A program made the position numbers and the translations under genes. A stretch of DNA of 64,000 bases from Mytilus trossulus (lineage: Eukaryota): assembly GCF_036588685.1 (NCBI RefSeq), contig NC_086377.1, positions 34,162,001-34,226,000 on the forward strand. Direction: 5' to 3'. Shown piece by piece: positions 42,901 through 57,323 of the stretch (positions are counted from its first letter, which is position 1; the number at the start of each line of letters is the position of its first letter). The notes beneath the pieces were generated by a model, which made no database searches, had not been told where the DNA came from, and worked only from the letters and a program-made list of their open reading frames with translations.

Positions 42901-45900
42901 CGGAGAATGGTCAGGATTACTGGTTGGTGAAAAACAGGTTAATATTGTTATAATGTACTCTACATGGTGTATTAGTTGTTGGATATGGGACGGAGAATAG
43001 TCAGGATTACTAGTTGGTGAAAAACAGGTTAATATTGTTATAATGTACTCTCCATGGTGTATTAGTTGTTGGATATGGGACGGAGAATAGTCAGGATTAC
43101 TGGTTGGTGAAAAACAGGTAAATATTGTTATAATGTACTCTACATGGTGTATTAGTTGTTGGATATGGGACGGAGAATGGTCAGGATTACTGGTTGGTGA
43201 AAAACAGGTTAATATTGTTATAATGTACTCTACATGGTGTATTAGTTGTTAGATATGGGACGGAGAATGGTCATGATTATTGGTTGGTGAAAAACAGGTT
43301 AATATTGTTATAATGTACTCTACATGGTGTATTAGTTGTTGGATATGGGACGGAGAATGGTCAGGATTAATGGTTGGTGAAAAACAGGTTAATATTGTTA
43401 TAATGTACTCTACATGGTGTATTAATTGTTGGATATGGGACGGAGAATGGTCAGGATTATTGGTTGGTGAAAAACAGGTTAATATTGTTATAATGTACTC
43501 TACATGGTGTATTAGTTGTTGGATATGGGACGGAGAATGGTCATGATTATTGGTTGGTGAAAAACAGGTTAATATTGTTATAATGTACTCTACATGGTGT
43601 ATTAATTGTTGGATATGAGACGGAGAATGGTCAGGATTACTGGTTGGTGAAAAACAGGTTAATATTGTTATAATGTACTCTACATGGTGTATTAGTTGTT
43701 GGATATGGGACGGAGAATGGTCAGGATAATTGGTTGGCGAAAAACAGGTTAATATTGTTATAATGTACTCTACATGGTGTATTAGTGGTTGGATATGGGA
43801 CTGAGAATGGTCAGGATTACTGGTTGGTGAAAAACAGGTTAATATTGTTATAATGTACTCTACATGGTGTATTAGTGGTTGGATATGGGACGGAGAATGG
43901 TCAGGATTACTGGTTGGTGAAAAACAGGTTAATATTGTTATGATGTACTCTAAATGGTGTATTAGTTGTTGGATATCGGACGGAGAATAGTCAGGATTAC
44001 TGGTTGGTGAAAAACTGGTTAATATTGTTATAATGTACTCTACATGGTGTAGTAGTTGTTGGATATGGGACGGAGAATGGTCAGGATTACTGGTTGGTGA
44101 AAAACAGGTTAATATTGTTATAATGTACTCTACATAGTGTATTAGTTGTTGGACATGGGACGGAGGATGTTCAGGATTACTGGTTGGTGAAAAACAGGTT
44201 AATATTGTTATAATGTACTCTACATGGTGTATTAGTTGTTGGATATGGGACGGAGAATGGTCAGGATTACTGGTTGGCGAAAAACAGGTTAATATTGTTA
44301 TAATGTACTCTACATGGTGTATTAGTTGTTGGATATGGGACTGAGAATGGTCAGGATTACTGGTTGGTGAAAAACAGGTTAATATTCTTATAATGTACTC
44401 TACATGGTGTATTAGTTGTTGGATATGGGACGGAGAATGGTCAGGATTACTGGTTGGTGAAAAACAGGTTAATATTGTTATAATGTACTCTACATGGTGT
44501 ATTAGGTGTTGGATATGGGACGGAGAATGGTCAGGATTATTGGTTGGTGAAAAACAGGTTAATATTGTTATAATGTACTCTACATGGTGTATTAGTTGGT
44601 GGATATGGGACGGAGAATGGTCAGGATTACTGGTTGGTGAAAAACAGGTTAATATTGTTATAATGTACTCTACATGGTGTATTAGTTGTTGGATATGGGA
44701 CGGAGAATGGTCAGGATAACTGGTTGGCGAAAAACAGGTTAATATTGTTATAATGTACTCTACATGGTGTATTAGTGGTTGGATATGGGACTGAGAATGG
44801 TCAGGATTACTGGTTGGTGAAAAACAGGTTAATATTGTTATAATGTACTCTACATGGTGTATTAGTGGTTGGATATGGGACGGAGAATGGTCAGGATTAC
44901 TGGTTGGTGAAAAACAGGTTAATATTGTTATGATGTACTCTAAATGGTGTATTAGTTGTTGGATATCGGACGGAGAATAGTCAGGATTACTGGTTGGTGA
45001 AAAACAGGTTAATATTGTTATAATGTACTCTACATGGTGTATTAGTTGTTGGATATGGGACGGAGAATGGTCAGGATTACTGGTTGGTGAAAAACAGGTT
45101 AATATTGTTATAATGTACTCTACATAGTGTATTAGTTGTTGGATATGGGACGGAGGATGTTCAGGATTACTGGTTGGTGAAAAACAGGTTAATATTGTTA
45201 TAATGTACTCTACATGGTGTATTAGTTGTTGGATATGGGACGGAGAATGGTCAGGATTACTGGTTGGCGAAAAACAGGTTAATATTGTTATAATGTACTC
45301 TACATGGTGTATTAGTTGTTGGATATGGGACTGAGAATGGTCAGGATTACTGGTTGGTGAAAAACAGGTTAATATTCTTATAATGTACTCTACATGGTGT
45401 ATTAGTTGTTGGATATGGGACGGAGAATGGTCAGGATTACTGGTTGGTGAAAAACAGGTTAATATTGTTATAATGTACTCTACATGGTGTATTAGGTGTT
45501 GGATATGGGACGGAGAATGGTCAGGATTACTGGTTGGTGAAAAACAGGTTAATAGTGTTATAATGTACTCTACATGGTGTATTAGTTGTTGGATATGGGA
45601 CGGAGAGTGGTCAGGATTACTGGTTGGTGAAAAACAGGTGAATATGTTTATAATGTACTCTACATGGTGTATTAGTTGTTGAATATGGGACGGAGAATGG
45701 TCAGGATTACTGGTTGTTGAAAAGCAGGTTAATATTGTTATAATGTACTCTACATGGTGTATTAGTTGTTGGATATGGGACGGAGAATGGTCAGGATTAC
45801 TGGTTGGTGAAAAACAGGTTAATATTGTTATAATGTACTCTACATGGTGTATTAGTTGTTGGATATGGGACGGAGAATGGTCAGGATTACTGGTTGGTGA

Positions 45901-57323: not shown

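Follow-up and report, generated by a model that had tools for sequence, protein, structure and literature searches.

A 154-copy minisatellite spanning the border of exon 7 and intron 7 in a mussel cathepsin L gene, probably a near-neutral passenger

The third of three tandem cathepsin L genes in a 64,000-nucleotide stretch of Mytilus trossulus DNA (the window; all three genes lie on the plus strand) carries a 90-bp minisatellite of 154 copies that begins inside exon 7 and repeats the donor of that exon in every unit. We consider it very likely that this array is a near-neutral passenger, that probably grew by unequal exchange and is probably spliced out with intron 7. This reading draws on the anatomy of the array, on the drift and block duplications of its units, on its occurrence in further mussel samples, on comparable repeats in human and amphioxus genes, on the joining of exons 6, 7 and 8, and on a bound of about 3% on unit-junction RNA from one run. 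Feature coordinates are collected in Table 1.

Anatomy of the array and its host gene

The model of cathepsin L paralog 3 has eight coding exons (33810-57323) bordered by GT-AG, and joining the donor at 42937 to the acceptor at 57224 keeps a frame of 330 aa open. It equals P0004 ('procathepsin L-like [Mytilus trossulus]') except for the first residues of that annotated protein, MK, which a short exon end at 31303..31308 likely supplies. Six of the eight exon peptides gave Pfam matches, one to the I29 propeptide (PF08246) and five to Peptidase_C1 (PF00112). The product, a complete 332-aa proenzyme of the C1A type, can be aligned over the full length to human procathepsin L (7w33_A, E 4.7e-104), and its CGSCW, NHGV and KNSW motifs match up. 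We take the NHGV histidine and the KN asparagine, both in the repeated part of the exon, to be catalytic residues. In a protein cluster of ten members that includes four named Mytilus species, nine join exon 7 to exon 8 normally, the tenth breaks off well before that point, and the ending expected from reading through donor 1 occurs in none of the ten. Orthologous proteins hardly differ in their exon 7 peptide, which varies at one D/E site. The host gene thus has the domains and motifs of procathepsin L, whereas the array contributes no coding sequence and its units drift neutrally.

Tandem Repeats Finder (TRF), applied to the window, reported a period of 90, 154.1 copies and 96% matches over 42873-56739; an indel-aware parse resolved this into 154 head-to-tail units with a single 1-nt insertion, in unit 117. 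The initial annotation had recognized the repeat, which we confirm, but placed its start at 42938; it begins 65 nt earlier, inside exon 7. Each unit consists of the last 65 nt of exon 7 followed by 25 nt from the start of intron 7. The real exon end forms unit 1, which is identical to the array consensus and to 26 other units; the first head-to-tail unit therefore spans a real exon/intron border, itself backed by RNA loose ends, as in the boundary minisatellites known as F7-type or 'mirage' repeats. The array spans about 13.8-13.9 kb and brings intron 7 to 14,286 nt, against 515 nt without it, a lengthening of about 28-fold. Its 154 units fall into 63 distinct types; the units diverge from unit 1 by 1.9% on average and from one another by a pairwise mean of 3.5%.

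An exact 26-nt junction pattern has 112 matches in the 1.3-Gb genome, and since all 112 lie in the window, the repeat was born at the present locus; a dispersed or transposon-borne satellite is ruled out by the same count. A 2-bp microhomology, CA, stands at both ends of the array (within CATGG where the units start and within CAGGG beyond the last one), from which we infer that it probably arose by a microhomology-guided 90-bp tandem duplication at the exon 7/intron 7 border. Broken frames rule out a coding repeat on the sense strand. On the antisense strand, a stop-free frame of 2236 codons (52929-46222, minus) has no ATG and is expected by chance, as 2 of the 65 unit variants create stops in it against 2.4 expected. 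One metagenome match to a 22-nt donor pattern (n=1, L023) was also rejected as chance, having no BLAST similarity to the window.

Of 21 runs listed as contigs, four were compared over 41750-42998, two of DNA (X1, X2) and two of RNA (X12, X17). In X1 (organism A) the unit-junction contig had a depth of 279 and unit bins reached up to 844, with a flank of about 9; in X2 (organism B) unit bins stood at 2200-4100 and the flank at 40-50. Unit sequence was present at about 30-100x flank depth in both DNA runs, where contig depth is not copy number. An assembly artefact is ruled out by this high unit depth in two independent DNA runs together with the 63 unit types. The array is real and was seen under two organism labels, which means that it has either persisted or introgressed. 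Over 42200-42830, X2 has one flank allele that is identical to the window over 272 bp and another that differs at 19 of 148 sites, which suggests very divergent haplotypes or a hybrid. Because of the identical allele, the presence of the array under two labels fits shared ancestry and hybridisation alike.

Other repeats occur in the introns of paralog 3. Intron 6 holds fragments of a high-copy interspersed repeat (window 41834-42127), for which contig depth reaches millions in the DNA runs, and smaller tandem repeats lie at 34225-34509 (62 bp x 4.6) and 41024-41186 (27 bp x 6, 100% identity).

Table 1. Features of the window and repeats at other papain-family loci. A slash within a motif marks the exon/intron border; positions with a locus prefix lie outside the window.
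Feature	Position	Strand	Basis or remark
Cathepsin L paralog 1, exon 7 donor without array	492..10901	+	
Cathepsin L paralog 2, exon 7 donor without array	17549..28615	+	
Likely short upstream exon end of paralog 3 giving first two residues (MK)	31303..31308	+	P0004 N-terminus and donor-like site
Paralog 3 upstream coding exons	33810-33955, 34808-34913, 35310-35456, 35961-36084, 36537-36637, 37776-37938	+	open frame, GT-AG borders
Paralog 3 exon 7, 106 nt, carries NHGV and KNS	42832..42937	+	PF00112 profile positions 155-188; flanked by RNA loose ends
Minisatellite, 154 x 90 bp	42873..56733	+	TRF and indel-aware parse
Authentic donor CAG/GTTAAT (donor 1)	42938..42943	+	gene model, RNA; homologous position in paralogs 1 and 2
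In-frame TAA beyond donor 1	42951..42953	+	74 nt upstream of donor 2; read-through peptide KNRLILL
GTAAAT donor variant, unit 3	43118..43123	+	second example in unit 36, at 46088
Last (154th) pseudo-donor	56709..56714	+	unit parse
Unique rest of intron 7	56734..57223	+	begins with CA also found at unit start
Paralog 3 last coding exon (SW..WG..GY...YPLV, stop)	57224..57323	+	RNA loose end behind 42937 matches its start, 11/12 letters
Donor-reiterating minisatellite of another cathepsin L gene, 31 bp x 8.2, 100% identity, AAG/GTAAGA per unit	L017:5769-6022 (G000:C5)	-	
Donor-spanning repeat, 112 bp x 2	L010:1237-1452		exon homologous to exon 7
Border duplications: donor-spanning, 33 bp x 2, and acceptor-spanning repeat	L019:8712-8781 and 5216-5318		
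Acceptor-spanning repeat	L012:5037-5160		
Donor-spanning repeat, 34 bp x 6	L055:5793-5988		
Exon-end copies, probably donor-spanning	L056:8227-8412		just downstream of exon homologous to exon 7
Donor-spanning repeat, 85 bp x 2	L057:7262-7434		exon homologous to exon 7
Stop-spanning repeat, 40 bp x 7	L013:5611-5895		last codons and stop copied into 3' UTR
Stop-spanning repeat, 29 bp x 4	L016:5830-5946		last codons and stop copied into 3' UTR

Splice signals, unit drift and RNA

Every unit reiterates the splice signal. GT is present in all 154 and AG/GT in 153, in agreement with the initial annotation, which had counted about 154 donors with the same exon end. The donor 9-mer is CAG/GTTAAT in 139 units, CAG/GTGAAT in 10 and CAG/GTAAAT in 2, and three further variants occur once each; the homologous donors stand at 10547 in paralog 1 and 27883 in paralog 2. 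The 12 units with GTGAAT or GTAAAT are, as had been pointed out, nearer consensus than the authentic donor. None of the 154 has a G at +5, so the perfect CAG/GTRAGT is reached by none. Only donor 1 preserves the frame by simple extension. The earlier translation of the read-through past it, with its stop, proved correct, and a junction formed by any downstream donor would lie at least 74 nt beyond a stop. NMD of such leaks would follow the 50-55-nt rule, if it applies in molluscs. If donor 2 were used the exon would measure 196 nt, and with donor 154 it would measure 13.9 kb. Stops occur in the exon part of 13 units, and the peptide of the exon is still encoded by only 55 of the 154.

The observation that no acceptor precedes the repeated CAT also holds, with AG at 0 of 153 unit junctions, and can be refined: AGs lie inside each unit at positions 12-13, 32-33, 41-42 and 64-65. 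Upstream of the first of these (TAG) the pyrimidine fraction is 0.57, a value shared by two of the seven real acceptors of the gene, and the fraction at the remaining in-unit AGs is 0.29. Pseudo-exons starting at in-unit AGs would measure 52, 32 or 23 nt, and each shifts the frame. The array does not resemble a set of tandem cassette exons: no AG stands at unit starts, frames are shifted, 13 units carry stops, and the share of synonymous changes is neutral. A recursive (ratchet) splice site is defined by a polypyrimidine tract ahead of AG/GT. Only 29% of the 14 nt before CAG/GT are pyrimidines, where the seven real acceptors have 57-93%, and CAG/GT thus has no such tract ahead of it.

The units vary as expected of sequence without constraint. 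We counted 65 distinct substitutions at 53 of the 90 unit positions. Those in the coding part comprise 9 synonymous, 31 missense and 7 stop changes against 40, 136 and 13 possible (P=0.86 for the synonymous share), a split close enough to the possible proportions that we see no coding constraint on the units; stops are slightly over-represented (P=0.04). Observed and expected numbers from base composition are 47 and 46.3 in the exon part and 13 and 12.5 in the intron part. No purifying selection was detected at donor positions -3 to +6 (5 distinct variants against 6.3 expected, a comparison of low power), and the absence of GT variants (0 against 1.65 expected, P=0.19) is not significant. Positions 58-67, a stretch picked post hoc, hold fewer variants than expected (2 against 6.6, P=0.04). 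The units drift neutrally, and conservation at the donor positions does not exceed chance. Identical runs of 20, 18 and 17 units are found again at lags of 51, 18 and 33, which suggests that blocks were recently duplicated through unequal exchange, the process by which the array would have grown. Such turnover, with concerted evolution and unequal exchange, is that of tandem repeats at other exon/intron boundaries.

RNA run X12 (organism B; its RNA label was guessed, but exon-exon contigs are present) shows both the exon 6-7 and the exon 7-8 join as loose ends among the joints listed, and unique intron 6 bins have depths of mostly 0-1.3. Two exon 7 contigs reach depths of 966 and 797, and the unit-junction contig 56.4, or 3.2%, a figure that would equal downstream donor use if every junction were mature RNA with one extra unit. 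This one run combines normal joins with unit-junction or read-through RNA no higher than about 3% of the exon 7 depth, a steady-state picture of preserved regular splicing with a dominant first donor. Intronic background from about a hundred collapsed units can explain the junction depth with zero leak. The X12 contigs have a flat depth each, and rare forms are dropped. Because the last 65 nt are identical across units, the contigs are silent on which unit donates to exon 8, and because the RNA is steady-state, NMD-degraded products are invisible in it. The second RNA run, X17, has an exon depth of about 60, too shallow to count, and the unit-junction contig is absent from it. The initial claim that the first donor alone is productive is consistent with the reading frame, with the F7 precedent and with the X12 value of about 3% or less; exclusive use is only bounded by these data.

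We propose that exon definition from the acceptor at 42832, over an exon of 106 nt, would commit donor 1. By analogy with F7, the spliceosome would take the first donor, and because of this the array would leave inside intron 7; none of the remaining 153 donors is paired with a good acceptor or matches U1 perfectly. Rare leaks would carry the upstream stop described above and would be degraded or yield a dead fragment. A leak at units 2-3 to some degree is plausible, because IFI6 and CBS use two neighbouring pseudo-donors. Given the drift of the units, the array is probably close to neutral for fitness.

A copy-number rheostat, in which downstream donors or weak in-unit acceptors yield stop-containing forms and a longer array gives less cathepsin L, strikes us as decidedly unlikely. 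GT is intact in all units, 12 of them have a better +3 base, the stop would lie 74 nt or farther from the junction of any downstream donor, the context of the TAG at unit position 12-13 resembles an acceptor, and neighbouring pseudo-donors are used in IFI6 and CBS, as summarised in PMC1557585. However, the donors carry no selection signal, and X12, from a sample with the array, shows the gene strongly represented and junction RNA no higher than about 3% of exon depth. In F7, only the first site is used whatever the copy number or improved match (PMC1557585), and first-come choice would send any leak to units 2-3 without scaling to 154 copies.

It seems very doubtful that the passenger is instead mildly harmful, costing the gene a longer intron and null alleles that arise when mutated units are copied back into the real exon end and are removed by selection. 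Unit 1 equals the consensus while only 55 of the 154 units encode the peptide and 13 carry stops, and the block duplications indicate active exchange, as this reading would have it; yet unit 1 is intact here and the orthologous exon 7 peptides hardly vary. Least probable is a U1 decoy or recursive-splicing ladder, with CAG/GT sites binding U1 or acting as zero-length ratchet points that aid intron removal: AG/GT in 153 units would permit it and a zero-length step would still yield the correct mRNA, but recursive use is unlikely because CAG/GT lacks the pyrimidine tract of the seven real acceptors, the intron is long solely through the array, no AATAAA or ATTAAA was found in the array that would need masking by U1, and 154 sites per transcript are few against the cellular U1 pool. 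The suggestion in the initial annotation of a splicing/NMD rheostat or U1 decoy is not borne out, given donors with no sign of selection, no perfect site, and the recurrence of the architecture in other cathepsin genes.

Recurrence at other papain-family loci

Repeats that cross gene-structure borders occur at several further papain-family loci (Table 1). A second donor-reiterating array lies in another cathepsin L gene (L017); its 31-bp unit is no multiple of 3, so each third donor comes back in frame, and stops intervene. Border duplications at L010, L012, L019, L055, L056 and L057 have 2-6 copies each. Two side observations belong here. At L019:4780-4955, a 21-bp x 8 repeat starts exactly at a cathepsin exon donor and has a weak donor-like GT per unit. 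At L063, two diverged tandem copies of a papain-family last coding exon (6759-7052 and 7172-7471), both strong PF00112 matches, are possible alternative terminal exons.

Among the first nine cathepsin loci, 6 of 27 repeats span a border against 1.55 expected by random placement (P=0.003), a count that leaves out L010, which was chosen by eye. In a replication set of eleven loci the figure was 3 of 32 against 1.56 (P=0.20), and at 30 P450 loci 0 of 17 against 0.93. The cathepsins combined give 9 of 59 against 3.1 expected (P about 0.005), with a null of random placement that ignores one copy being held by selection and hence detectable longer; cathepsins and P450 do not differ significantly (Fisher P=0.19). 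The recurrence at other cathepsin loci favours a mutational, tolerated origin of the 154-copy array over a special function. We regard as unlikely a bolder combination, in which the array, the longest we found described, leaks into NMD according to its length and tunes a digestive or immune protease, and cathepsin genes are hot spots of border duplication through splicing- or transcription-linked mutation.

Comparison with known border-spanning repeats

If the array is ordinary, as we believe, a mollusc keeps to the first donor in the face of 153 identical competitors spread over 14 kb, and a rule that in mammals was tested on 5-9 copies is extended; the array may also serve as a highly variable marker within a gene of Mytilus. 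It would carry greater weight if its length altered enzyme output, or if border-spanning duplications were truly enriched in highly expressed genes. In the freely accessible papers that we searched, we found no minisatellite report for Mytilus cathepsins or for the present locus.

The nearest parallel is the 37-bp VNTR of human F7 intron 7 (Borensztajn et al. 2006), of which only the most upstream donor is used (PMC1557585). In F7 minigenes, downstream sites improved to a CV of 91 fail to compete, and only perfect sites do so (PMC1557585). As in the mussel gene, the first unit spans the exon/intron border and identical pseudo-donors follow the authentic donor. The F7 unit, however, has 4 exon bases and 5-9 copies, whereas the mussel array has 65 exon bases per unit and 154 copies, and first-site exclusivity was established by minigenes in F7 and is bounded by one RNA run in the mussel. 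The natural experiment in donor choice that the initial annotation saw in the array has therefore already been performed in F7, on 5-9 copies.

Further human cases are summarised in PMC1557585 as using two further sites (IFI6, or 6-16, with 25 pseudo-sites, and CBS intron 13 with 15-20 units) or the authentic donor only (LMNB2, 100 bp x 10-15, and PDGF intron 4, 81 bp x 16-18). LMNB2 and PDGF are donor-reiterating minisatellites with unit lengths similar to those of the mussel array, whose copy number is about 6x the largest among the four. In amphioxus, 'mirages' in Adh3 and the globins BflGb6 and BflGb9 are border-spanning repeats that leave regular splicing undisturbed and are unstable in length (PMC3087553). 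Like the mussel array, they are duplications of an exon-intron border in an invertebrate, include much of the exon in each unit and evolve in concert (PMC3087553). They differ in having 3-6 units in the globin cases, whereas the mussel array is far longer and has higher-order blocks. The architecture is already known from human and amphioxus genes; only its size is unusual.
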